Shown one piece after another: positions 1,814-26,105 of a DNA stretch of 44,111 bases. Under the pieces are notes generated by a model that searched no databases, was not told the origin of the DNA, and saw only the letters and a program-made list of their open reading frames with translations. The translations under genes and the position numbers were made by a program. Origin of the DNA: a virus (taxonomy: Duplodnaviria > Heunggongvirae > Uroviricota > Caudoviricetes); the IMG/VR virus record IMGVR_UViG_2563366879_000002, positions 1-44,111 of that record, one strand, 5' to 3'. Within the stretch, counting starts at the first letter, position 1. Each line of letters begins with the position of its first letter.

Positions 1814-1928
1814 AACCGGTTCGGGATTCGCATCCGTTACACTTCGCTCGGTAATATCCTGAAATGGCTTTCACCGTTACTGATGGACAACCACAAAATG
1901 GACATGGTTTAACATTGTCATATCTCAT
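1734..1928 (-). CDS. ralR: Restriction alleviation protein Lar/RalR (64 aa, zinc-ribbon)
   Basis: MRYDNVKPCPFCGCPS...CNGCESRTGYGG...ALERWNKRT: CPFCG plus CxxC pair typical of Lar family; position upstream of recT as in Rac. Confidence 0.8.
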   Translation of the reverse strand: MRYDNVKPCPFCGCPSVTVKAISGYYRAKCNGCESRTGYGGSEKEALERWNKRTTGNNNGDVHV

Positions 1929-1983
1929 AACTTTTCTCATAAAAATATTTCAAGTTCGCGGTGCATTACACCGCCAGGCTGAA

Positions 1984-2793
1984 TTATTCCTCTGAATTAT
2001 CGATTACACTGTATTCCCCGGTTAATACAGAGGAATCTGCAGGATCGATTGTCAGTGGTTCCTTTTCATCCATTGATACTGCACGCTGGATCTCAATTGA
2101 TACGGGCAGATATTTGAACAGACGACGAATAGCCGTTTTCTTTGCCATTTCTTCCCAGTGAGTTACCCACGGCCCGTTATTACTAGCTTTACTCTGGCTG
2201 CGCACCAGCTCAATCTGTTTGTGCGTCATAACTTCAAACTGAGTACCTCCGTCTTTCAGTCTTGCGACAGCATAGACGTGGGTAACCGGGGCATCTTCGT
2301 TTTCTCCTGGGCGGTGTATTAACTTTTCATCAAGGCCAAATTCGAAATTAAACTCGTCACCTTCACGGACAACACGGGCTGACAGGCTGGCGATTTGACC
2401 TGAACGGCGAGCCAGATCAATCATGCCGCGATAGCCAATGATTAGCTGAACGTTTTTTTTACCGCTCTTTTCGTTTTTATTACCAAAAGGCAGTAAATAT
2501 GCATGACCGAGGGCGCTACCGGGCTCAAGTCCGAGCTGTGAACACTGTACGATTGCACTGACAAAACTCATAGTGTCACAGTTTCCTAACGCCGGAACTT
2601 TACGAATTTCTGTGGTGGCGATACGGATCATACGTTCAGCCGTCATATGGCGTGGAAGAGCTGCTGCCAGTTGCTCTTTCATTGATGGCTGGTTAATAAA
2701 ACTAATCACGTCGTTATTTTTAATTGCTGCTGGTGCACGGTTTCCCTGAGTTTTTTGCAGATCGGCTTTTGCGATTGGTGGTTGCTTAGTCAT
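1984..2793 (-). CDS. recT: RecT single-strand annealing recombinase (269 aa from internal Met [12 protein letters not shown])
   Basis: Protein matches the remembered RecT of Rac throughout; immediately downstream of recE in the same operon. Confidence 0.9.
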
Positions 2794-5437
2794 TTGCATA
2801 TTCCTTAGCCCAGCGGGGCAGTGATAACGTCTTAATAGCTGGCCATTCATCGGTATTGAGGCAGTCAGCCAGGGTTCGCAGATTGCGGTGATATTCCAGC
2901 TGACCTGCCAGTTTTGCTTCTTCGCCCATCATGAAAATTTCAACCGGATAACGTCCGCATTCAATAGTTGTGCTGGCAACCAGAAAAACGAAAGTTGGCT
3001 GCACTCCAAACTGTGCTTCATAACCGTCACTGTAGAATGCATCCTGAACGTGATAGCGGTAGTCGTAATAAGCGGTTTTGAATCGTTGAATATCCGCCGT
3101 AGTTTTCACGTCCATGATCCAGTGAAATTCAGGGATAATTTTGTCCGGACGGCACCGACACAAAATTCCTGTTTCAGGATCTTCCCAGTAAATTGATGAT
3201 TCAGCGTGTCCGGCGCTTTCAACAAGCCATTGCCCCAGCGGCAAAGCCATAACGCTTTGATACATGAGTTCAATTTTCCGGCCTTCTTCCGCAGTGATAA
3301 CCGTTTTTCCTGTGTTTGCGCATTCCATCAGAAACGCTTTCTCCTCTTCTTTTCCGGCGTTTGTACGGCGGTTAAATTCAGGTGCTACGATAAAGCGGTT
3401 ACTGAATTCTTCCGGTTCAAGTACCCGGCAGTGGAAAGCGGTTCCTAAATCGAGCGTTTTTGTCTTTGTGGTGTCCACGGGGGCATTTTTACGCCACAAA
3501 TACAGTGCCGGAGTATCAGCAATGTCATCGAGCTGAGACTTACTGACACCGGGACCCGCGTGGTAATTCTCATTCGAAATTCCGTAATAAATACCTGGCT
3601 CTATGTCTTCTACGATTACGGGATCTGCGACTTCGCCAGTTTCATCACTGCAATCGCGATGCGGATCGCTGCCAGCATTCTCATTGTGCGGATGTTCAGC
3701 GCCTTCCATTTTCTCCGGATCATTTTCCTTAGCTTCAACCTGATTCTCTTCATCGAATGTTTCCTGGTATGTTGCGTCGCCCATCACCGCACCACAGTCA
3801 GGGCAGTTATCCCCGCCAGTCTGACCGCAGGCATTGCAGGCTATTTCCGGTTCCTGTTGCACTACTGGCTCAGGTTGTTTCATATCCGGGCTGATTTTTT
3901 CCGTTTCTGGCTGGTTCTGGTACACAGAATCGCGAGTCTGGATCCCCTTAACCCATTTCGGATCGTTCGGGTCGCTAATTCCGTCAACAAATTCACCACG
4001 TGATGCAGCAAGCAATTTATCGGCATCGACAGGATTTTTTGATGGAATGTTTTTCCGGGCTTCATGGAGTTCTGCCCGCAGTTCCTGATATTTCGCATCA
4101 ACAGAATTTACCTGTGACTGAGCATCCAGTGGCTGCGTGTCCTGATGATGTTCAGTTGCGTCCGGTTCCATTGTTTCAGCCTCTCCCTGTTCATCTGCCG
4201 TTGTTCCAGATGGTTGCGGTTTTTCTTCATCATCCTGTTTTCCTTCTTCTGTTACTCGCTGCGGCATCGGGGCCGAGGAGCGACCGCAGGCAATATCCAC
4301 GATTTCCGGATCAGGGTTGGCATGATCGGTTTCAGTCAGTACTTTGTTCAGATATTCAGTGACGTGTGCGGGGATGACCTCGATCCCAATTGGTGCTTCT
4401 TTCACGGACGCAACCACGATGGCGCGGGAATAATCCAGCCCGCCAGGCATGGTGATGAATTTGTCGCGGAAAACAGAAAAGGGTGGTTTATTTTCAGCGA
4501 TAATTTCCTCAATGCGTTTAGCGTGTGCCGGATGAAGGTTATAGATGTCCACGTCCATTGAACGGGCCAGTACGCCAGTGGCTACATCGCGCGCCAGTGA
4601 CGTCAGATCGTGGACGAAACCTTCGCCGCGATCGGTGAGGTTCCCGCCGCCAGCATTAGCACCGGAAGCCGTGCGAGTGATGTGTGAAACACGATTCCCT
4701 TTTCGCCATTCTTTTGTCAGAAGACCGCGATCAATGTGTTCGGTATCCAGCCAGGCTGAAATGAAATTCTTAAATTCATAGGGCTGATGTTTTTTCGTGA
4801 TAGGGAAAACTGCCTTAATTGCATCAGTCAGGCGGAGCAGGGCGGCATTATCCAGAGTTGTCGGTTCTGCCATGCCGCGTATGGCCAACAGCAGATTCTG
4901 GACATAGCTGTTTTCCTGATCCATCTCAAGAGCAGTAATGTGTTCGCGTTGTTCACGGGTGGCATGATGCAGGTATTTCCGATCCCCGGCCGCATACGTA
5001 AAAATGTGCAGTAGACGCTGAGTGAACCGCAAAGTGGCTACAGAGACTTCACAATCCTGGCAATCCCCGTGGGCGTCTGCCTGCGCGTTTTCTTCCTGGC
5101 CTCCCGTCAGTTTTTCAGTTTCCTGAGCATTGTCCTGATAGTGAACGTCGTCTGGCGCTGCTCCCGGTTTTAGTTCCCAGGTCATGGAGTCTTTGCTGAG
5201 TTGATAGCGTTCACTCCAGGTAAAATCGATCTCACCTTCAGGGGGAAGGTCATTAACGACAGGAAAATTTGTGGCAACAGCTTTAAAATAGTTGCTCAGT
5301 TTTTTACCTGACTTAACGATCAGGTAGTCCAGAGTGACACAGGTCGATTCAAAATCGTCACTTGCCCACAGGACGACGTCAGGTTCACCGGATGATTTTT
5401 TCGCTTTTCGTAACAGGAAGAGTGGTTTTGTGCTCAT
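2786..5437 (-). CDS. recE: RecE exonuclease VIII (883 aa)
   Basis: Long minus-strand ORF; acidic Gln/Glu/Pro-rich central region and conserved C-terminal nuclease domain ([24 protein letters not shown]...) as in RecE; recE-recT arrangement. Confidence 0.9.
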
Positions 5438-6716: not shown

Positions 6717-7205
6717 ATGTTGGATGTATTTACTCCATTGTTGAAACTTTTTGCTAACGAGCCACTCGAAAGACTTATGTATACGATTATCATTTTTGGT
6801 CTCACTCTCTGGCTGATACCGAAAGAGTTTACTGTCGAATTCAATGCTTATACTGAAATACCTTGGCTCTTTCAGATTATCGTTTTTGCCTTTTCTTTCG
6901 TGGTCGCCATTTCCTTCTCAAGATTGCGAGCACATATTCAAAAGCATTATTCATTACTACCAGAGCAACGAGTATTGCTTCGTTTATCTGAGAAAGAAAT
7001 CGCTGTATTTAAAGATTTCCTTAAAACAGGAAATCTTATTATCACTTCTCCTTGCCGTAACCCGGTTATGAAAAAATTAGAACGGAAGGGCATCATTCAA
7101 CATCAGAGTGATAGCGCAAACTGTTCTTATTATCTCGTCACCGAAAAATACTCCCATTTTATGAAGTTATTCTGGAACAGCAGGAGTAGACGTTTTAATC
7201 GTTAG
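6717..7205 (+). CDS. sieB: Superinfection exclusion protein SieB (162 aa from internal Met MLDVFTPLL); membrane protein
   Basis: Hydrophobic N-terminal segments (IIIFGLTLWLIP, LFQIIVFAFSFVVAISF); sequence recalled as SieB; plus-strand gene embedded in the leftward operon as in lambda and Rac. Confidence 0.85.
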   Translation: MLDVFTPLLKLFANEPLERLMYTIIIFGLTLWLIPKEFTVEFNAYTEIPWLFQIIVFAFSFVVAISFSRLRAHIQKHYSLLPEQRVLLRLSEKEIAVFKDFLKTGNLIITSPCRNPVMKKLERKGIIQHQSDSANCSYYLVTEKYSHFMKLFWNSRSRRFNR

Positions 7206-7357
7206 CTTACTGTGTGCTTCTCCAACCATCGGCGCGCACCAGTTTCGGTTTTAAATGTTTTGCTTTTGGTATACGTCATAGCAGTGAACGTTCCATCTTG
7301 GTTGGGGAACACGCCGCACACTAGGGATTCGTTATTGCCGAGGTCGATTTTTTGCAT
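7202..7357 (-). CDS. ydaF: YdaF-like small protein (51 aa), hand-translated; coordinates approximate
   Basis: MQKIDLGNNESLVCGVFPNQDGTFTAMTYTKSKTFKTETGARRWLEKHTVS; convergent with sieB with a few-nt 3-prime overlap. Confidence 0.5.
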   Translation of the reverse strand: MQKIDLGNNESLVCGVFPNQDGTFTAMTYTKSKTFKTETGARRWLEKHTVS

Positions 7358-7367
7358 TTTTCGCACC

Positions 7368-7502
7368 TCACATTTTGTTGTTGCGGATAGAGGCTTCTGC
7401 CTGCCAGAGATCCCAGTCGTTGCTGCGTAGAGCCTGTACAGCCTGGCTGTAAGTGATATCGCAACAATCCATCAAATACTGAACTACTTCGTAATGCACC
7501 AT
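7368..7502 (-). CDS. ydaG: YdaG-like small protein (44 aa), hand-translated; coordinates approximate
   Basis: MVHYEVVQYLMDCCDITYSQAVQALRSNDWDLWQAEASIRNNKM; first gene of the leftward operon downstream of the left operator. Confidence 0.5.
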   Translation of the reverse strand: MVHYEVVQYLMDCCDITYSQAVQALRSNDWDLWQAEASIRNNKM

Positions 7503-8706: not shown

Positions 8707-8728
8707 AACATCAAGAGGCAAATGATTC

Positions 8729-9151
8729 ATGAAAATCAAGCATGAGCACATCGAATCAGTGTTGTTTGCCCTGGCAGCCGAAAAAGGGCAGGCATGGGTA
8801 GCCAATGCAATTACTGAAGAATATCTGCGCCAGGGGGGCGGCGAATTGCCCCTGGTTCCAGGCAAGGACTGGAGCAATCAGCAGAATATCTATCACCGTT
8901 GGTTGAAAGGTGAAACGAAAACGCAAAGAGAAAAAATTCAGAAGCTGATCCCAGCAATTCTGGCAATCCTTCCGCGCGAGCTGCGTCACCGACTCTGCAT
9001 CTTCGATACCCTGGAACGCCGTGCATTACTGGCGGCGCAGGAAGCGTTAAGTACGGCAATTGATGCGCATGATGATGCAGTCCAAGCCGTTTACCGGAAA
9101 GCGCATTTCAGCGGCGGCGGGTCTTCCGACGATTCTGTCATTGTTCATTAA
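8729..9151 (+). CDS. ydaT: YdaT (140 aa), toxic/CII-like protein of Rac
   Basis: Sequence recalled as YdaT; immediately downstream of ydaS. Confidence 0.85.
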   Translation: MKIKHEHIESVLFALAAEKGQAWVANAITEEYLRQGGGELPLVPGKDWSNQQNIYHRWLKGETKTQREKIQKLIPAILAILPRELRHRLCIFDTLERRALLAAQEALSTAIDAHDDAVQAVYRKAHFSGGGSSDDSVIVH

Positions 9152-9163
9152 GCAAAAGTTTCC

Positions 9164-10021
9164 ATGCTGTTTGTGCTTATTCTAAGCAACCGGGCAGCAT
9201 CATACGGGGCAATTATGGCCGCATTACCATACATGCAACTGTACATAGCTGATTACCTGGCTGACACCATGCATTTGTCAGCAGAGGAGCATGGTGCGTA
9301 TTTGTTGCTGATGTTCAATTACTGGCAAACAGGAAAGCCAATACCTAAAAACAGGCTGGCAAAAATTGCCCGTCTGACTAACGAGCGATGGGCTGATGTT
9401 GAACCATCCTTGCGGGAGTTTTTTTGCGATAACGGCGAGGAATGGGTGCATCTTCGGATTGAGGAAGATCTGGCATCAGTCAGGGAAAAATTAACCAAAA
9501 AATCAGCCGCAGGAAAAGCATCGGTTCAGGCCAGAAGAAGCAGAAAGGAAGCAGATGTTCAAACAAAACAAGAGAGAAATTTAACAGGTGTTCAAACAGA
9601 TGTTGAAGTGGTGTTTGAACATGATGTCAACACAAAGGCAACTAATAAAGATACAGATAAAGATCTAAAAACAGATCCCCCCCTAAATCCCCCCCGGGGG
9701 AATCGAGGTGGCAAAAAGTTTGACCCTCTGGATATTGCTTTGCCGAACTGGATTTCTGTCTCGCTTTGGCGTGAGTGGGTTGAATTTCGCCAGGCATTGC
9801 GTAAACCGATTCGAACGGAGCAGGGCGCTAACGGGGCGATACGGGAGCTGGAAAAATTCCGCCAGCAGGGTTTTTCACCTGAGCAGGTGATTCGACACAG
9901 CATCGCCAATGAATACCAGGGCTTGTTCGCGCCAAAAGGTGTTCGACCTGAGACGTTACTCCGACAGGTTAACACCGTCTCGTTACCGGATAGTGCGATC
10001 CCGCCAGGCTTCAGGGGGTAA
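9164..10021 (+). CDS. ydaU: YdaU, replication-initiation-associated protein (285 aa)
   Basis: Position upstream of the DnaC-like gene, as for lambda O/P; recalled as YdaU. Confidence 0.75.
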   Translation: MLFVLILSNRAASYGAIMAALPYMQLYIADYLADTMHLSAEEHGAYLLLMFNYWQTGKPIPKNRLAKIARLTNERWADVEPSLREFFCDNGEEWVHLRIEEDLASVREKLTKKSAAGKASVQARRSRKEADVQTKQERNLTGVQTDVEVVFEHDVNTKATNKDTDKDLKTDPPLNPPRGNRGGKKFDPLDIALPNWISVSLWREWVEFRQALRKPIRTEQGANGAIRELEKFRQQGFSPEQVIRHSIANEYQGLFAPKGVRPETLLRQVNTVSLPDSAIPPGFRG

Positions 10022-10027
10022 CTGACC

Positions 10028-19316: not shown

Positions 19317-20108
19317 ATGAGCGAGAAATTAAAGATAGTCTATCGCCCATTACAAGAATTGTCACCGTATGCGCACAACGCCAGGACGCACAGTACTGAG
19401 CAGGTGGCACAACTGGTAGAAAGTATTAAGCAATTCGGCTGGACTAATCCGGTGCTGATTGACGAAAAGGGCGAAATTATTGCGGGTCACGGTCGTGTTA
19501 TGGCGGCTGAAATGCTCAAAATGGATTCTGTTCCGGTCATTGTTCTGTCTGGCCTGACGGATGAGCAGAAAAAGGCGTACCGCTTGGCAGATAATCGCCT
19601 ACCGATGAATGCTGGCTGGGATGAAGATCTGTTGCGGATGGAGCTGTCGGACCTAATCAATGCTGATTTTGATGTCTCCCTGACAGGCTTCAGCACGACA
19701 GAAATTGATGAACTGTTGACGAATGTTTTGCCCGGTACAGGAAATAAGGAGGAGCCGTATACGACGAAAATTGATACGCCTGTTTATGAGCCGTCGGGCG
19801 GTAAACCGGATATCAGTGAACTGTACGACGATACGAAAACTCAGGAGCTGATCAGCCGGATACGTTCGGCGTCCCTTGATCCTGATATTGAGAAATTCCT
19901 CCTGTGTGCGGCAGAACGTCACACGGTGTTTAATTTCAGCAGAATTGCGGACTATTACGCTCATGCCCCCGCTGAAATTCAGTGCCTTTTCGAGGAGTCG
20001 GCGCTGGTGATCATTGATTATCAGCAGGCTATTGAAAATGGATTTGTCCGAATGACGCAGCGCATGGTGGAGATCATGCATGGCGGGGAGGAGGAGGAAT
20101 ATGCGTGA
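19317..20108 (+). CDS. ynaK: ParB/Srx-like N-terminal domain protein (263 aa), YnaK-like
   Basis: ParB-type GxxR motif (IIAGHGRVMAAE) and Arg-containing DNA-binding segment; N-terminus matches remembered Rac YnaK fragment; acidic C-terminus. Confidence 0.7.
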   Translation: MSEKLKIVYRPLQELSPYAHNARTHSTEQVAQLVESIKQFGWTNPVLIDEKGEIIAGHGRVMAAEMLKMDSVPVIVLSGLTDEQKKAYRLADNRLPMNAGWDEDLLRMELSDLINADFDVSLTGFSTTEIDELLTNVLPGTGNKEEPYTTKIDTPVYEPSGGKPDISELYDDTKTQELISRIRSASLDPDIEKFLLCAAERHTVFNFSRIADYYAHAPAEIQCLFEESALVIIDYQQAIENGFVRMTQRMVEIMHGGEEEEYA

Positions 20109-21033
20109 TGATTTTTGCGCCTTTATTCTGACTCACGGGCGACCGGACAAAGTTCTGACTTACCGGACGTTGCGTCGTGCTGGCTATACCGGGAAAATTT
20201 TTATCGTTGTTGATGATGAAGATAAGACACGGCATCAGTACATGGCTGAATTTGGTGAACAGGTGCTGGTGTTTTCCAAAGCCGATATCGCCAGTCGTTT
20301 TGACGAAGCCGATAATTTCGGTGACCGCCGCTCAATTTTTTACGCCCGTAATGCCTGTTTCGACCTGGCAAAACTGGTCGGGTGTAAATACTTCATTCAG
20401 CTCGATGATGATTATCACGAGTTCCAGTTTCGGGTGGATCGCAACTATGACCAGGCCTATTTTCCGATAAGGAAACTGGATGCGATCCTTTCTGAAATGC
20501 TGGCGTACTACGAATCAATACCTGCTCTTTCCATCGCTATGTCGCAGGGCGGGGATTTTCTTGGTGACAATGGCGGCCATGCTTCGTGGGTGAAACGCAA
20601 GGCAATGAACAGCTTTATCTGTTCGGTTGATCGACCGTTCTCATTCATGGGGCGCATTAACGAGGATGTGAATACGTACACGAATCTCGGTCGCTGTGGT
20701 GAATTGTTTATGACGATCGGTGCTGTCCAGTTAGGGCAGAAACAGACGCAGAAAAACAGCGGCGGAATGACCGAGCTGTATCTGGATTCCGGAACCTACG
20801 TTAAAAGTTTTTACTCCGTCATGTATGCGCCGTCGTGCGTAAAAATCTCACTGATGGGTGCCAGCCATAAACGCATTCACCATCAGGTCACCTGGAACAA
20901 CGCTGCAGTAAAAATCCTTCACGAAAAATACAGGAAGAAGACACCCTGCATATCAATAGGGGTGACAAATGATTCCGTATTCGAAAGTCGAGTCTCTGGC
21001 AGCGTGCCGGATGACTGCACAACAAATCGCTGA
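20101..21033 (+). CDS. Uncharacterised protein (about 310 aa from MRDDFCAF) with GT-A-like features (Rossmann-like N-terminus, DxD-like FIQLDDDYHEF)
   Basis: ORF track ORF 20080..21033; GGAGGAGGAGGAA immediately upstream of the internal ATG; start overlaps the ParB-like gene stop; fold assignment is motif-based inference. Confidence 0.45.
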   Translation: MRDDFCAFILTHGRPDKVLTYRTLRRAGYTGKIFIVVDDEDKTRHQYMAEFGEQVLVFSKADIASRFDEADNFGDRRSIFYARNACFDLAKLVGCKYFIQLDDDYHEFQFRVDRNYDQAYFPIRKLDAILSEMLAYYESIPALSIAMSQGGDFLGDNGGHASWVKRKAMNSFICSVDRPFSFMGRINEDVNTYTNLGRCGELFMTIGAVQLGQKQTQKNSGGMTELYLDSGTYVKSFYSVMYAPSCVKISLMGASHKRIHHQVTWNNAAVKILHEKYRKKTPCISIGVTNDSVFESRVSGSVPDDCTTNR

Positions 21034-21220
21034 CGTTCTGGATGTTGATCTGAACCGACTGAAAGAAAATCGGGAAGCAATGACAGATTTTTATGCGGCC
21101 ATCCGTAAGGGCAGAGCGAAAGGTGAAGCCGAGTTACGAGCGGCATTGTTTAAGCTTGCCAGAAAAGGGGATGCCTTTGCTCTGCGCGAACTACTCAGGG
21201 TGGATAAAAATCAGGACTAA
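20969..21220 (+). CDS. Small helical protein (83 aa), possibly DNA-binding/packaging-associated; start may be the internal Met at about 21011
   Basis: ORF immediately upstream of the small terminase; overlaps the end of the preceding gene. Confidence 0.35.
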   Translation: MIPYSKVESLAACRMTAQQIADVLDVDLNRLKENREAMTDFYAAIRKGRAKGEAELRAALFKLARKGDAFALRELLRVDKNQD

Positions 21221-21223
21221 CTG

Positions 21224-22318
21224 ATGAGCAGACCGGACTGGGGGGCGTTGCAGCAGGAGTATATTGCTGAATACACCCGCTCCGGTATATCTCCGGTGGC
21301 ATGGTGTGAAGCAAGGGGACTGAATTACGCAACAGCCCGTCGTTACATCAAAAAACCTCCGAAAAATGCGCAGACAGAAATGCGCAAAACTGCGCAAAAA
21401 AGTGCGCAGAAAAAATCTGCGCAGACTGCACAAAAGCGGAACGAAAAATCTCAGGAAAAAAAGCCAGTATTCGATGCGTACCTGAATGAGGGCGATGCGG
21501 AAGAAATTTCGTTCTGTCCCGATGAATTCGGTATTTCAGACCAGCAGGCGAAATTCGCAATGCTGGTTGCCCAGGGGAAAAAACTCGTTGAGGCATATCG
21601 CCTGGCAGGATACGAGTCAGAGGGGAATGCGGCCTACGTAACCGCCAGCCAGCTCCTAAGAAATCCTAAGGTTTATCGTGCCATCAGCTACTTCCGCAAT
21701 CAGTACCAGAAACGCTATACCGCAGACCTGGATTTACTGGTGAGCCAGTTGATGGCCATTGTCCAGGCCGACCCCAATCAGCTTGCACAATTTCGCCGTG
21801 TTAACTGCCGTTATTGCTGGGGCGAGAATCATCTCTACCAGTGGCGCGATATAGCAGAATTCGACAAGGCAGCGGCGCAGGCTTCCAGAGATGGCAAACC
21901 CGAACCGGAATATGGAGGCCTCGGCTTTGTTGATAACGCCATACCCAATCCGGACTGCCCGAAGTGCTGCGGTGAGGGAACGGGACAGCTTTATATGGCT
22001 GATACCACTCTGCTTGATGGGGATGCGCGGCAATTATATGCAGGGGCAAAACTCGGAAAATTCGGCGTTGAGATCCTGCTGGAGGATAAGGCTGCCGCCC
22101 GGCGTGAATTGTTGCGTTTGCTTTCTGCTGGTGGGGCTTTATGTGCAGATAAGCGGCTACAGGAACTGGAAATTGAACGGCGCAGAATGGAAAACCAGAA
22201 GCTGCGCAAAGAGATCGAAACGGTGGAAGATAATGAACATCCCCAGCCTGTGGCGATCAATATTAATGTGGTTGATGCCAGAGTAAGGAGTGATGAAGAT
22301 GATCTCTCCGACGCTTAA
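21224..22318 (+). CDS. Terminase small subunit (Terminase_2-like core) with N-terminal HTH and C-terminal Cys-rich/coiled-coil extension, 364 aa
   Basis: Core AKFAMLVAQGKKLVEAYRLAGYESEGNAAYVTASQLLRNPKVYRAI resembles the terminase small subunit signature; precedes the large subunit. Confidence 0.7.
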   Translation: MSRPDWGALQQEYIAEYTRSGISPVAWCEARGLNYATARRYIKKPPKNAQTEMRKTAQKSAQKKSAQTAQKRNEKSQEKKPVFDAYLNEGDAEEISFCPDEFGISDQQAKFAMLVAQGKKLVEAYRLAGYESEGNAAYVTASQLLRNPKVYRAISYFRNQYQKRYTADLDLLVSQLMAIVQADPNQLAQFRRVNCRYCWGENHLYQWRDIAEFDKAAAQASRDGKPEPEYGGLGFVDNAIPNPDCPKCCGEGTGQLYMADTTLLDGDARQLYAGAKLGKFGVEILLEDKAAARRELLRLLSAGGALCADKRLQELEIERRRMENQKLRKEIETVEDNEHPQPVAININVVDARVRSDEDDLSDA

Positions 22319-23600
22319 TGTGCCTCAGGCGCGATTTCTTTCAATGCCCCATAAATTTAAAGCCTATATTGCTGGTTTTGGCTCGGGCAAAACATGGGTT
22401 GGGTGTGGCGGCATATGCAAGGGGATTTGGGAGCATCCAGGTATAAATCAGGGATATTTTGCGCCAACGTATCCCCAAATTCGCGATATTTTTTACCCTA
22501 CAGTGGAAGAAGTTGCTGCTGACTGGGGATTGAACGTAAAAATTAATGAGGGAAATAAAGAGGTTCACTTTTATTACGGACGCCAGTATCGGGGAACCAC
22601 TATCTGCAGATCGATGGAGAAGCCACAAACGATCGTCGGTTTCAAAATTGGTAATGCGCTGGTGGATGAACTGGACATTTTGCCGAAGGAAAAAGCCAGA
22701 ACGGCGTGGCGCAAGATAATTGCGCGTATGCGTTATAAGATTGATGGACTTCGCAACGGTATTGACGTTACAACCACGCCGGAAGGATTCAAATTTGTCT
22801 ACGAGCAGTTTGTTAAAGCCGTGCGTGAAAAAACAGAGCTGGCCTCACTGTATGGTCTGGTGCAGGCATCTACTTTCGATAATGAAAAGAACCTGCCAGT
22901 AGATTACATTCCTTCGCTTCTTGAATCATACCCTCCAGAGCTGATTAAAGCCTATCTTCGAGGACAGTTTACTAACCTGACAAGTGGTACTGTTTACCAT
23001 CAGTTTGACCGGAAACTGAATAATTGCGAAGAAGTGGAGCAGCCAGGGGAGCCGATTTATATTGGGATGGATTTTAACGTTGGAAAGATGGCGGGGATCG
23101 TCCATGTGCTGCGTTTGGGGCTTCCATGTGCGGTAACTGAAATCATCAATGCCTACGATACGCCGGATATGATCCGCATCATTAAAGAACGCTTCTGGCT
23201 GTATGACGGGAATGATTACCGGAAAGTGAGGGAGATTTATATTTATCCAGATGCTTCCGGAGATTCCAGAAAATCAAGTAACGCAAGTACGACGGATATA
23301 GCCCAGCTTAAGCAGGCTGGTTTTAACGTTGTGGTGAACAGCTCGAACCCGCCAGTAAAAGATCGCGTTAACTCAATGAATGCAATGTTCTGCAATGCCA
23401 ATGGTGAGCGTCGCTATAAAGTTAATGTGAAGCGTTGTCCGGTATATGCCGAATCTCTGGAGCAACAGGTCTGGGATGATAAGGGGGAGCCTGATAAAAA
23501 ATCTGGCAATGATCACCCGAATGATGCCGGAGGTTATTTCATCGTTAAGCAATTCCCTATTGTCAAACCGACCGGAAGAGTCACATCACTTCGGATTTAA
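22290..23600 (+). CDS. Terminase large subunit (ATPase/nuclease), 436 aa
   Basis: Walker A AGFGSGKT near N-terminus; acidic nuclease motif region; position between small subunit and portal. Confidence 0.85.
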   Translation: MMKMISPTLNVPQARFLSMPHKFKAYIAGFGSGKTWVGCGGICKGIWEHPGINQGYFAPTYPQIRDIFYPTVEEVAADWGLNVKINEGNKEVHFYYGRQYRGTTICRSMEKPQTIVGFKIGNALVDELDILPKEKARTAWRKIIARMRYKIDGLRNGIDVTTTPEGFKFVYEQFVKAVREKTELASLYGLVQASTFDNEKNLPVDYIPSLLESYPPELIKAYLRGQFTNLTSGTVYHQFDRKLNNCEEVEQPGEPIYIGMDFNVGKMAGIVHVLRLGLPCAVTEIINAYDTPDMIRIIKERFWLYDGNDYRKVREIYIYPDASGDSRKSSNASTTDIAQLKQAGFNVVVNSSNPPVKDRVNSMNAMFCNANGERRYKVNVKRCPVYAESLEQQVWDDKGEPDKKSGNDHPNDAGGYFIVKQFPIVKPTGRVTSLRI

Positions 23601-23602
23601 TT

Positions 23603-25009
23603 ATGGCTGATATATCAACACCCAACCTCGACTATAACGATATGCTGGAGGCGTGGGATATTAACGACGCATTGATGGGCGGTACGCTTGAAATGCGCAG
23701 GCAGGGGGAAAATTATCTCCCCAAATGGCCTAATGAAGATGAAGACGCTTATAAAAAACGCCTGTCTGTGGCTACGCTACTTCCTGTGTATGAAGAAAGC
23801 GTCAAACAAAATATTGGGCGCATATTTGCAGAGCCGACAGTATTGAGTGAGGAAACGCCGGAAAAAATCAGGGAATATGCAGAAAATATCGACATGGAGG
23901 GGAGCCGACTGGATGTGTGGGCGCAGCAATTTTTCAGTCTCGCATTTCAGTATGGTGTGGCACATGCTCTGGTGGACTATCCACGAACGGATATGAAAGA
24001 GATTCGGACAAAAGCCGATGAAAACGCGGCCGGTGGTCGCCCGTACGTTACGATGCTGAATCCACGCCAGGTTATTGGATGGAAATCGAAAGTTGAAAAA
24101 GGGAAAGTTGTTCTCACTGATTTGCGTATAAAAGAGGTCATCATTATTGATGGTGATGATTTCGGGCAGAAGAAGGTGGAGCAGATCCGCCATATTATGC
24201 CCCGTCGAGTTGAAATTTATCGACGCAGCGAAGGTACTAATGGCGAATCTGTCTGGACGCTTCATGAGTCATGGAATACCAGCCGTGATGATATTCCTCT
24301 GGTAACACTGTATACGAAGAAAACAGGGTTTATGCGTGGTACACCGCCATTGCTTAATCTTGGCTTGCTGAATATCAAGCACTGGCAAAGCCAGAGCGAG
24401 CAGGACAATATTCTTCATGTTGCCCGCGTTCCATTGCTGGTGGCCTACGGGCTGGACAGGAATGAAGAACTGACGGTTGGTGCATCCACCGCTACGATTT
24501 TTGAGGACAGAACAAAAAATGGCCTCGAATATGTTGAACATAGTGGCGCAGCGATAGAATCTGGCGAAACATCACTTGAGAAGCTGGAAAATCAGATGCG
24601 TCATGCCGGCGCTAAACTTCTGCGGGCTGAAAATACATGCACCAAATCTGTTGATCAGACTAATGAAGAGCGGATGCAGGAACACTCGCCGCTTTATACA
24701 ATGGCGAACTCCCTCGAAGATGCCCTCGATAATATTCTCCAGATAATGGCGGAATGGAGCGGAGAGAGTTGCGGTGGCAATGTGGATGTGCGCACTGAAC
24801 TGGATGTATCTGCCCAGGTGTTTGACTCATCCTCCGCGCTGGCTGTTCAGTCATTGCGTCAGGGCGGTGATATACGTCAGATTGATGCGGTTCGGGTGTT
24901 GCAGGCGTTGAAATTTATCGATCAGGATTCCCGTCCAGAGGAAGTGATCGATGAATTAAAAAATCAGAGTGTAATGCTGATGGAAATCAATGATGCAAAC
25001 CGTGAATGA
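23603..25009 (+). CDS. Portal protein (468 aa)
   Basis: Size and position immediately after terminase large subunit. Confidence 0.65.
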   Translation: MADISTPNLDYNDMLEAWDINDALMGGTLEMRRQGENYLPKWPNEDEDAYKKRLSVATLLPVYEESVKQNIGRIFAEPTVLSEETPEKIREYAENIDMEGSRLDVWAQQFFSLAFQYGVAHALVDYPRTDMKEIRTKADENAAGGRPYVTMLNPRQVIGWKSKVEKGKVVLTDLRIKEVIIIDGDDFGQKKVEQIRHIMPRRVEIYRRSEGTNGESVWTLHESWNTSRDDIPLVTLYTKKTGFMRGTPPLLNLGLLNIKHWQSQSEQDNILHVARVPLLVAYGLDRNEELTVGASTATIFEDRTKNGLEYVEHSGAAIESGETSLEKLENQMRHAGAKLLRAENTCTKSVDQTNEERMQEHSPLYTMANSLEDALDNILQIMAEWSGESCGGNVDVRTELDVSAQVFDSSSALAVQSLRQGGDIRQIDAVRVLQALKFIDQDSRPEEVIDELKNQSVMLMEINDANRE

Positions 25010-26105
25010 ACGGCTGCGTGATGAATCAATTGCTCATGCAGTCTGGATATCCCGCTATAGCACTGGTGTGGCTGCCAGAATGGTGAAAATACTGAATGAC
25101 AGCGATGCGGAGCTTACAGCTCGCCTGCTGGTAGCACTGGACAGCCTCGATCCTGGTAGTTTTACCGTTACGCGCCTGGAGTCACTTCTGGCGAGTGTCA
25201 GAGAAGTTAACCGCGCTGCTATTAACAGCATGTTTACCAGTCTCTCCGGAGAGCTGAACGAGCTGGCAATTTATGAGGCTGGTTATCAGTTAAGTCTGTT
25301 TGATTCTCTGCTACCTGATTTTGTTGCTGATGTTCACCCTCTGGTTGGTATCTCTTCTGATGCACTTTACGCCGCTGCAATGGCGCGACCATTCCAGGGA
25401 CGACTGCTCAGTGAGTGGGCCTCAGATCTTGAGGCGGATCGGCTCAGACGCATAACAAATACGGTGCGTCAGGGTTTTTTGCTGGGGGATACCAATGAGC
25501 AGATCGCAAGAAAAATTCGGGGACATGTCAGTAAGGGATTTCAGGATGGTGCATTGCAGATGAGCCGGGCTAATGCGGCCAGCATTGCAAAAACAGCGGT
25601 TGGACATCTTGCTGCTACTGCTCGTGAGAGTTTTGCACGCGCGAATAATGATTTGATTAAGGGTAAGCAATGGTTATCAACGCTTGATAATCGTACTACG
25701 CCACAATGTCGAATCAGGGATCGCCTCAAATATACGCTGGATAATAAACCTGTAGGTCACAGCGTGCCTTATTTGCAGGGGCCGGGAAAAATTCATTTCT
25801 GCTGCCGCTCAACGGAAACGTTCATTCTGAAATCAGCGAAGGAACTGGGTATTGATGTTCGTGATATTTCCCCGGCTGAGCGGGCCAGCATGGATGGCGT
25901 GGTGGCCGGAGATACAACCTACAGGGAATGGTTTTTGCGCCAGCCTTACACCAGACAAAAACAGATTGTGGGGGAAACCCGGGCAAAGCTGATTCGGGAT
26001 GGCGGTATGTCGCCAGATGAATTTTACACCGATAAAGGCGAATGGCTGACACTGAAGCAACTCCGAGAGCGTGATGCACAGGCATTCAGAAAAGCAGGGA
26101 TTTAA
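24990..26105 (+). CDS. Head morphogenesis / minor head protein (371 aa)
   Basis: Position after portal; typical packaging-head gene order. Confidence 0.55.
   Translation: MMQTVNERLRDESIAHAVWISRYSTGVAARMVKILNDSDAELTARLLVALDSLDPGSFTVTRLESLLASVREVNRAAINSMFTSLSGELNELAIYEAGYQLSLFDSLLPDFVADVHPLVGISSDALYAAAMARPFQGRLLSEWASDLEADRLRRITNTVRQGFLLGDTNEQIARKIRGHVSKGFQDGALQMSRANAASIAKTAVGHLAATARESFARANNDLIKGKQWLSTLDNRTTPQCRIRDRLKYTLDNKPVGHSVPYLQGPGKIHFCCRSTETFILKSAKELGIDVRDISPAERASMDGVVAGDTTYREWFLRQPYTRQKQIVGETRAKLIRDGGMSPDEFYTDKGEWLTLKQLRERDAQAFRKAGI

Follow-up and report, generated by a model that had tools for sequence, protein, structure and literature searches.

What might a ParB-like protein and a putative glycosyltransferase, encoded as a tightly coupled gene pair, be doing directly ahead of the packaging genes of a prophage? 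The question is raised by two open reading frames (ORFs), here called ORF1 and ORF2, in a 44,111-nucleotide virus record (IMG/VR IMGVR_UViG_2563366879_000002; "the window" hereafter means this whole stretch), which is a Rac-like lambdoid prophage of E. coli starting with the integrase beside ttcA. A preliminary description of the locus, made from the sequence alone, took the pair for a DNA-targeting module combined with a transferase, serving either DNA modification by the phage or defense by the prophage; in the literature, we found no characterization of a ParB plus glycosyltransferase pair or of the function of the K-12 genes ynaK and ydaY. Our analysis identifies ORF2 as a glycosyltransferase of the TAGT family and its obligate partner as the linker motif and C-terminal domain of ORF1, not the ParB domain, and leads us to propose, tentatively, that the two proteins may form a late glycosyltransferase that acts on phage DNA.

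ORF2 belongs to the TAGT family of glycosyltransferases

ORF2 is a GT-A-fold enzyme of the TAGT ("TET-associated glycosyltransferase") family with a DxD nucleotide-sugar/metal motif. It matches the Pfam profile PF20691 (6e-35, 121.5 bits against a cutoff of 27.5), with residues 8-222 lying on profile positions 4-205 of 205, and it matches phrog_842, which is annotated as beta-glucosyl-HMC-alpha-glucosyltransferase (HMC, hydroxymethylcytosine), at 8.6e-104. Across 28 homologues down to 59% identity, little or no variation is seen in the motifs LDDDY (D102-D104), NEDVN, GGMT and R-x-HH, and the DDD triplet does not vary at all. The nucleotide-sugar-transferase fold suggested in the preliminary description is borne out. 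The AlphaFold2 (AF2) model of ORF2 is confident over the first ~150 residues and poor beyond them. A search of PDB sequences with the TAGT profile returned chance matches only (E ~1, T4 gp54), and no NCBIfam model matched either the TAGT protein or the 83-amino-acid (aa) ORF that follows the pair.

The characterized relatives of ORF2 are informative as to what it might do. The family includes the beta-glucosyl-HMC-alpha-glucosyltransferase of phages T2 and T6, which acts on DNA (PMC13216743, PMC13390438) and does so on DNA that carries glucosyl-5-hydroxymethylcytosine (glucosyl-hmC; PMC13216743), as well as the 5mYOX-associated phage GT-A enzymes and the kinetoplastid base-J glucosyltransferase; ORF2 shares with them the GT-A fold and the DxD motif. 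Identity to the T-even-type TAGT proteins of Aeromonas phages Aeh1 and 65 is ~23-25%. Unlike the characterized members, ORF2 resides in a prophage with no annotated alpha- or beta-glucosyltransferase, TET/JBP enzyme or hydroxymethylase, and it is accompanied by an obligatory partner that is undescribed for those members. Solitary TAGT homologues have been reported from 288 of 753 phage genomes that encode glycosyltransferases (GTs), their function being left undefined (PMC13216743), and it is among these that ORF2 falls. A survey of phage DNA glycosyltransferases also listed ParB-like genes among the neighbors and found ~65% of GT contigs to be without a base-modification neighbor (bioRxiv 10.1101/2023.12.21.572611), while the TAGT/ParB prediction is credited to Iyer et al. 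2013 by PMC8256090 and PMC13229309.

Some TAGT homologues carry additional domains. At the N-terminus the extension is in some cases a second TAGT and in others a class I methyltransferase or a P-loop protein; in P0271, P0308 and P0318 the extension is a P-loop domain (GxxxxGKS/T) of ~180 residues (aa 1-180) without a Pfam match. Other homologues have a class I methyltransferase or sulfotransferase domain, or a second TAGT, at the C-terminus.

The obligate partner is a C-terminal domain rather than the ParB domain

Loci were collected in both search directions, starting from the transferase and from the helical C-terminal domain (CTD) of ORF1. The TAGT-seeded set draws on one-genome-per-species contigs for 21 loci and on viral contigs for 80, with hosts that include Bacteroides, Lachnospiraceae, Faecousia, Desulfovibrionaceae, Thiotrichales and Hyphomonadaceae, and in all 101 of them a CTD gene lies immediately upstream (E <= 1e-29). 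Conversely, in each of the 80 CTD-seeded viral loci a TAGT gene lies downstream on the same strand; it is directly adjacent in 75, and in the remaining 5 a 1-kb gene encoding a histidine phosphatase and a cytidylyltransferase-like domain stands between the two. Conservation of the gene neighborhood, a point that the preliminary description had raised, is therefore strict from either side. When the pairs were dereplicated at 90% identity, 66 were left, and in 57 of these the stop and start codons overlap, mostly by 8 or 11 nt. Mean pairwise identity among the 66 pairs is 0.52 for both the CTD and the TAGT protein and 0.40 for the ParB domain, which diverges faster.

The part of ORF1 that is universally conserved is a motif, Y-[ST]-x-x-x-x-x-P-x-Y-x-P (also Y[ST]..K...P.Y.P), together with the helical CTD that follows it; Y148, P155 and Y157 are retained in every homologue that was examined, those of Bacteroides phages and of a haloarchaeal virus included. 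The ParB domain, in contrast, may be fused to this part, encoded by a separate gene (contig L196) or absent (L016, L102, L195, L197 and Vibrio phage pv27). The P22-like viral contig L196 has four genes in positions 1850-4418, encoding a ParB_N protein (125 aa), a CTD-only protein (129 aa), a phosphatase-cytidylyltransferase-like protein (317 aa) and a TAGT protein (291 aa), with the terminase next. The ParB and partner domains can thus be separate polypeptides, since this contig encodes each alone. What obligately accompanies TAGT is the linker motif together with the CTD, the ParB domain being optional; the combination of a ParB-like protein with a glycosyltransferase is therefore one form of a wider unit of partner domain and TAGT. 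It follows that the earlier reading of a DNA-targeting module plus transferase was right in recognizing a ParB domain and a transferase but over-read the former, because many partners have no ParB domain.

The minimal conserved unit is CTD plus TAGT, with no conserved third gene. A large share of the solitary TAGT enzymes are strictly paired, in a unit of two genes, with a partner domain that had not been described before; the unit occurs in tailed viruses whose hosts are Proteobacteria, Bacteroidota, Firmicutes, Actinobacteria and haloarchaea. When Pfam was searched with 15 diverse CTDs, no family described the domain, and homology to the ParB dimerization domain was not demonstrable. PF23887 (phage L5 gene 47-like) gave weak, short matches to 4 of the 15 (best E 0.009), which we dismissed as insignificant. 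A profile of the CTD matches 5598 proteins at E <= 0.001, the top scorers being mostly stand-alone proteins of ~130 aa without a Pfam domain, and no natural CTD-TAGT fusion was present among 142 cluster representatives.

Genes that are inserted into the cassette, or fused to its members, in relatives encode His_Phos_1 plus cytidylyltransferase-like proteins, class I S-adenosylmethionine (SAM) methyltransferases (Methyltransf_23/11/12), sulfotransferases, P-loop proteins or a second TAGT. The His_Phos_1/cytidylyltransferase-like protein looks like a donor-synthesis enzyme, and the accessory genes are what would be expected of an enzyme that uses a nucleotide-sugar and whose product is tailored further.

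The ParB-like region of ORF1 and its known counterparts

The N-terminal region of ORF1 had been described as a ParB/Srx-type domain of the kind that phages fuse to DNA methyltransferases, here with no methyltransferase attached, and family searches agree on both counts. Pfam ParB_N (PF02195) matches aa 23-90 above its cutoff (29.4 bits against 26.3), ORF1 matches phrog_620 at 6e-90, and the N-terminal module matches the ParB-methyltransferase fusions phrog_498 (1.6e-51, aa 3-141) and PADLOC MTase_II (4.5e-38, aa 10-141); these fusion-family matches end at aa 141, and no methyltransferase domain was matched in ORF1. Its first ~140 aa are thus closely related to those of the fusions, with which it also shares the prophage habitat, and in some relatives of the cassette a Methyltransf_23-type gene occurs as an insertion or a fusion. 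The cassette differs from the fusions in that its enzyme is a glycosyltransferase encoded apart from the ParB-like protein. A 2025 survey of the ParB fold describes ParB-N6_N4 MTase (methyltransferase) and ParB-Methyltransf_23 fusions in prophages and mentions no glycosyltransferase partners (PMC12704722).

In its N-terminal fold, ORF1 also resembles the canonical CTP-dependent clamps ParB, Noc and KorB. Its residues can largely be aligned with boxes I-III (N-x-R, G-x-x-R, D-N), ADN with the EN box of Noc/ParB and GHGR with the GERR box (Box II), from which it differs in sequence. Unlike canonical ParB, it is acidic, lacks a helix-turn-helix (HTH) and has neither a ParA nor a parS-type context; no parA is annotated in the prophage, and the match to the partition ParB model TIGR00180 (38.2 bits) is below the cutoff of 58.45.

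A closer counterpart is ParB176, which with 5mYOX176 makes up a ParB-dependent phage thymine dioxygenase pair (O'Toole et al., PNAS 2026, PMC13229309). ParB176 consists of a nucleotide-binding domain (NBD), a short helical segment, a disordered linker of ~50 aa and a CTD, and has no DNA-binding domain; it is required only on double-stranded DNA (dsDNA), needs both its NBD and its CTD, works in specific cognate pairs and tolerates mutation of the NTP-binding residues (PMC13229309). The AF2 model of ORF1 has the same layout as this published description, with an NBD at aa 1-95, helices at aa 103-134, a segment at aa 136-169 with pLDDT (per-residue model confidence) <50 and a helical CTD at aa 170-255. 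Both systems are gene pairs of an enzyme and a ParB-like protein, and in the present one the CTD and enzyme co-vary and strictly co-occur. There are also clear differences: ORF2 is a GT-A glycosyltransferase and not an iron/2-oxoglutarate (Fe/2OG) dioxygenase, of which none is present; the GT-associated dioxygenases were the ParB-independent ones (PMC13229309); and the NBD is here dispensable in evolution, being absent or a separate gene in many relatives, unlike in ParB176.

The pair lies among packaging or replication genes

In the window the pair is placed 3' of the lysis genes and, as had been reported, between the trkG moron and the terminase genes, and the coordinates of its features are collected in Table 1. 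Direct reading of the sequence likewise upholds the translational coupling and the strong ribosome-binding site of the preliminary description: the ATG of ORF2 (20101-20103) and the TGA of ORF1 (20106-20108) both fall within ATGCGTGA (20101-20108). The longest reading of ORF2 opens at 20080, but the true start is the ATG at 20101, since in an alignment the homologues all begin at MRDDF, which corresponds to this position.

Table 1. Positions in the window of the gene pair, its domains and motifs, and other features discussed in the text
Feature	Position	Strand	Remarks
ORF1 (263 aa), ParB-like partner	19317..20108	+	full-length form of K-12 ynaK
ParB/Srx nucleotide-binding-type domain of ORF1 (aa 1-95)	19317..19601	+	N21-x-R23, G57-H-G-R60 and D92-N93 align with boxes I-III
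Linear motif EPYTTKIDTPVYEPS of ORF1 (aa 146-160)	19752..19796	+	in predicted disordered linker
Helical CTD of ORF1 (aa 170-255)	19824..20081	+	FLxxAAxRHxxFxFxxIAxYYAH...LFExSALVIIDY..AIxxGF
Ribosome-binding site GGAGGAGGAGG of ORF2	20089..20099	+	within the end of ORF1; direct sequence reading
ORF2 (310 aa), TAGT-family GT-A glycosyltransferase	20101..21033	+	8-nt overlap with ORF1
DxD motif D102-D103-D104 in LDDDY of ORF2	20404..20412	+	invariant in 28 homologues
Terminator-like hairpin (10-bp stem, 7 G-C pairs), then TGCGTTTTAT	19266..19289	+	after the trkG moron, 28 nt before ORF1
83-aa ORF, terminase-small-subunit-like	20969..21220	+	phrog_309, 8e-23
Terminase small subunit	21224..22318	+	
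Terminase large subunit	22290..23600	+	
228-aa ORF in nin-like region	12154..12840	+	CCAPCS motif
tRNA-Thr(TGT)	15484..15559	+	5' of lysis genes
tRNA-Gly(TCC)	15563..15637	+	5' of lysis genes
Minor head gene (371 aa)	24990..26105		intact

The G+C content of the pair (0.47-0.50) matches that of the packaging genes and differs from that of the trkG moron (0.31-0.40), and no promoter-like site was seen between the hairpin that follows trkG and ORF1. On the strength of this hairpin, the missing promoter-like site and the packaging-gene G+C, the pair appears to be part of the late operon and is presumably expressed late; late transcription would have to read through the hairpin.

Across viral genomes, the pair immediately precedes the terminase genes in head modules of four unrelated types: P22-like (the window and L196), lambda-like (L103), HK97-like (L105) and that of Bacteroides phages with gp3- or Sf6-type small terminases. 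It also occurs as ORF1/ORF2 of Lactobacillus phage c5, right after cos; between the late activator and the small terminase gene (terS) of phi jlb1; as Orf1/Orf2 of Nocardia phage NTR1, before the large terminase (TerL); and as genes 21/22 of the haloarchaeal virus HHTV-2, about 3 kb before TerL. Elsewhere the surroundings are those of replication: in L016 the pair is found between DNA polymerase A and the beta clamp, in L100 after a primase-helicase, in L102 and L195 after DUF1376 replication proteins, and in the 191-kb Vibrio phage pv27 between a primase/exonuclease and a helicase. The neighborhood thus consists of replication or packaging genes in most loci, not of structural-protein or envelope genes; the pair is co-oriented with late or replication operons, and c5, pv27 and NTR1 have no annotated integrase.

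Two neighborhoods have further peculiarities. In an HK97-like phage (L105 16837-18894; L106 8659-10716), three to four consecutive family-2 glycosyltransferase genes lie just past the capsid gene and could be extra glycan-building or virion-glycosylation genes. On a Faecousia (Firmicutes) contig, L011, a second small ParB_N protein is encoded directly after the transferase (6875-7444), and the large terminase 3' of the pair (8805-11318) contains a LAGLIDADG domain, probably as an intein or homing endonuclease.

A possible two-subunit glycosyltransferase acting on phage DNA

We tentatively propose, at somewhat less than even confidence, that the pair is a two-subunit late glycosyltransferase that acts on phage DNA around replication or packaging. 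The two-subunit part of this proposal is well supported by the co-occurrence, the coupling and the equal divergence of the two genes. ORF2, with its DDD metal/nucleotide-sugar site, would be the catalytic subunit and ORF1 an obligatory accessory subunit that presumably forms a complex with it, the linker motif and CTD binding or completing the enzyme, while the ParB/Srx domain, probably NTP-binding, would be an optional regulatory or DNA-engaging add-on. Transcribed in the late operon just ahead of the terminase genes, the pair would take its sugar from a nucleotide-sugar and attach it to phage DNA that has been replicated, either ahead of packaging or while this is under way, and, by analogy with the role of ParB176 for 5mYOX176, the partner may enable action on double-stranded DNA. 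Virion DNA modified in this way would be shielded from host nucleases in the next infection. DNA modification is the leading reading because the characterized phage members of the TAGT family glycosylate DNA; that DNA is the acceptor is further suggested by the genomic context and by the methyltransferase-type ParB domain with its 2026 analogue, and a protective role for the modification would follow from it.

Several points weigh against this proposal, the chief weakness being the absent hydroxylated acceptor together with an acidic partner that has no DNA-binding domain. All characterized TAGT-family transfers that we know of target a hydroxyl, canonical DNA bases offer no hydroxyl acceptor, and to our knowledge phage DNA glycosylation has so far been found only on hydroxymethyl- or hydroxy-pyrimidines made by the phage itself. 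The annotation of a near-identical prophage, that of E. coli 2009C-3133, contains no TET/JBP dioxygenase, no thymidylate-synthase-like hydroxymethylase and no DNA methyltransferase, and the unnamed genes of the prophage are too small to encode an enzyme that forms a hydroxymethyl base. The complete genomes of c5, phi jlb1 and HHTV-2 likewise have no annotated hydroxymethyl-pyrimidine-forming enzyme or DNA methyltransferase, and about 20 diverse neighborhoods contain no acceptor-supplying enzyme (TET/JBP, hydroxymethylase or first DNA glucosyltransferase). Because no such enzyme is annotated, 5-hydroxymethylcytosine (5hmC), 5-hydroxymethyluracil (5hmU) and glucosyl-5hmC are not supplied, and the acceptor would have to differ from a phage-made 5-hydroxymethylpyrimidine. 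The partner poses difficulties of its own: ORF1, with a pI of 4.6, and nearly all of its homologues are acidic; no family match indicates an HTH or other recognizable DNA-binding domain in ORF1; Bacteroides homologues (GNGV) and L020 (GHGT) have lost the Box II arginine; and many partners have no ParB domain at all. The AF2 models are poor for the CTD of ORF1 and the C-terminal half of TAGT, so that no interface or DNA-binding surface can be derived from them. Finally, GREB1, a member of the TAGT family, is a protein O-GlcNAc transferase (PMC7968844).

A bolder reading is that the pair glycosylates canonical, non-hydroxymethylated DNA directly, at the backbone or at a nitrogen or oxygen of a base, with the ParB domain as an optional DNA-engaging regulator. 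We consider this unlikely, but it would carry weight if true: a minimal two-gene module would then produce a new chemical class of natural DNA modification, with consequences for restriction evasion, sequencing artefacts and enzymatic DNA-labeling tools.

Also unlikely is a protein acceptor, which might be a Tyr or Thr/Ser motif of the partner itself, serving for glycogenin-like self-priming or as a substrate loop, or else a protein of the packaging machinery, the virion or the host that the partner recruits. Glycosylated virions are known from mycobacteriophages, and the three to four family-2 glycosyltransferase genes beside the capsid gene of one relative could be read in the same way; the GREB1 precedent, the lack of an encoded source of hydroxylated bases and the acidic partner without a DNA-binding domain all count for it too, as does the Tyr/Thr/Ser-rich motif with which the universal part of the partner opens in a predicted disordered region. 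That conserved linker motif could equally be a docking peptide, however, most loci lie among replication or packaging genes and not among structural-protein genes, the ParB domain belongs to the kind found in DNA methyltransferase fusions, and the closest studied partner architecture activates a DNA enzyme (PMC13229309). Were the acceptor a protein, the pair would represent a new conserved phage glycoprotein system.

It is improbable that the acceptor is of another kind, be it a small molecule or nucleotide, a host-made modification of DNA, or RNA (a modified tRNA base with a hydroxyl, for instance), with the partner as an allosteric subunit. The data leave the acceptor unconstrained, and accessory nucleotidyltransferase-phosphatase, SAM methyltransferase, sulfotransferase and P-loop genes are typical of the tailoring of small molecules or glycans; yet CTD and TAGT alone are conserved, with no third gene to define a pathway, and adjacency to terminase or replication genes is kept across unrelated phage types.

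The prophage defense cassette of the preliminary description fares worse still, and we judge it quite improbable that the pair is expressed in the lysogen for defense or superinfection exclusion, whether by spoiling the DNA of incoming phages (hmC, hmU or glucosyl-hmC) or by draining UDP-glucose. Such an idea has been raised for prophage GTs (bioRxiv 10.1101/2023.12.21.572611), the TAGT enzymes of T2 and T6 do use glucosyl-hmC DNA (PMC13216743), and the pair adjoins the trkG moron in a prophage present in about 16% of complete E. coli genomes. Against this, its G+C is that of the phage backbone and not of the moron, a terminator-like hairpin stands directly upstream with no promoter-like site after it, and the same pair is found, co-oriented with late or replication operons, in c5, NTR1 and pv27, phages with no annotated integrase or with the pair in replication modules. 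PADLOC-DB 2.0 holds no match for TAGT, and ORF1 matches only the N-terminal module of its methyltransferase model.

Lastly, the database label "ParB-like partition protein/nuclease" carried by ORF1 homologues, and a place beside cos or terminase that could suit a packaging accessory factor, might suggest that ORF1 is a partition, packaging or nuclease protein with the transferase as an unrelated neighbor, but this is very improbable in view of the 181/181 co-occurrence over both search directions, the conserved stop/start overlap, the retention of the CTD where the ParB domain is missing, the lack of an HTH, a ParA or a parS-type architecture, and the TIGR00180 score below cutoff.

The ParB fusion found in E. 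coli ties the two-gene unit to a new principle of ParB-activated DNA-modifying enzymes. Since E. coli is amenable to genetics and one of its prophages has an intact copy, direct tests of the acceptor, of the donor and of what the partner does are feasible.

Distribution in E. coli and the K-12 Rac prophage

The 1717-bp segment that spans the pair is present in 1580 of 5426 complete E. coli genomes, and in 889 (about 16% of all the complete genomes) at >=80% coverage, so that Rac-like prophages with the pair occur in about one in six. Being widespread in E. coli genomes and conserved across phyla, the pair does not consist of chance ORFs. Over positions 8723-26009, the window shares 99.7% identity with the E. 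coli 2009C-3133 prophage (NZ_CP013025.1).

The preliminary description had K-12 keep fragments of both genes in ynaK and ydaY, which turns out to be half correct. In the Rac prophage of K-12 MG1655 (L107 5630), a deletion of ~11.6 kb joins window position 19570, inside ORF1, to 31179 in the tail region, and most of ORF1, all of ORF2 and the terminase, portal and head genes are gone. Because K-12 homology breaks off at 19570, ynaK is the first 254 nt of ORF1. The other candidate, ydaY, can be ruled out as a remnant of ORF2, since it comes from beyond the junction, ~11.6 kb downstream, and ORF2 is wholly deleted.

The truncated K-12 gene has left its mark on annotation. In NZ_CP013025.1 (L001 20001-20258), ORF1 is intact, yet the annotation pipeline PGAP marks only its first 258 nt, as a ynaK pseudogene with the C-terminus missing; the apparent cause is that the truncated YnaK of K-12 serves as reference protein. 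In other genomes the full-length ORF1 is annotated, and PGAP labels the transferase "hypothetical protein" or "GREB1-related protein". The 2009C-3133 prophage also carries an IS3-family element (L001 26694-28001, corresponding to window ~26009) near the 3' end of the minor head gene; it is absent from the window, where this gene is intact, and the two prophages are therefore not from the same strain. A 99-nt remnant past the IS3 element in NZ_CP013025.1, given by PGAP as "ParB/Srx family", looks like an annotation artefact.

Three further features of the prophage may be recorded. The 83-aa terminase-small-like ORF lies directly 3' of the pair in Enterobacterales relatives, and in the window it is overlapped by 65 nt (20969-21033) by the end of ORF2, whose last ~25 aa are an unconserved tail peculiar to the lineage of E. 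coli. Homologues in Salmonella and Klebsiella, and more distant ones, stop ~20-25 codons sooner, and the small ORF follows them with no such overlap. The 228-aa ORF is labeled epoxyqueuosine reductase QueH (tRNA queuosine pathway) in the near-identical record, and we found no link between it and the cassette. Between this ORF and the lysis genes, the prophage encodes the two tRNAs listed in Table 1.

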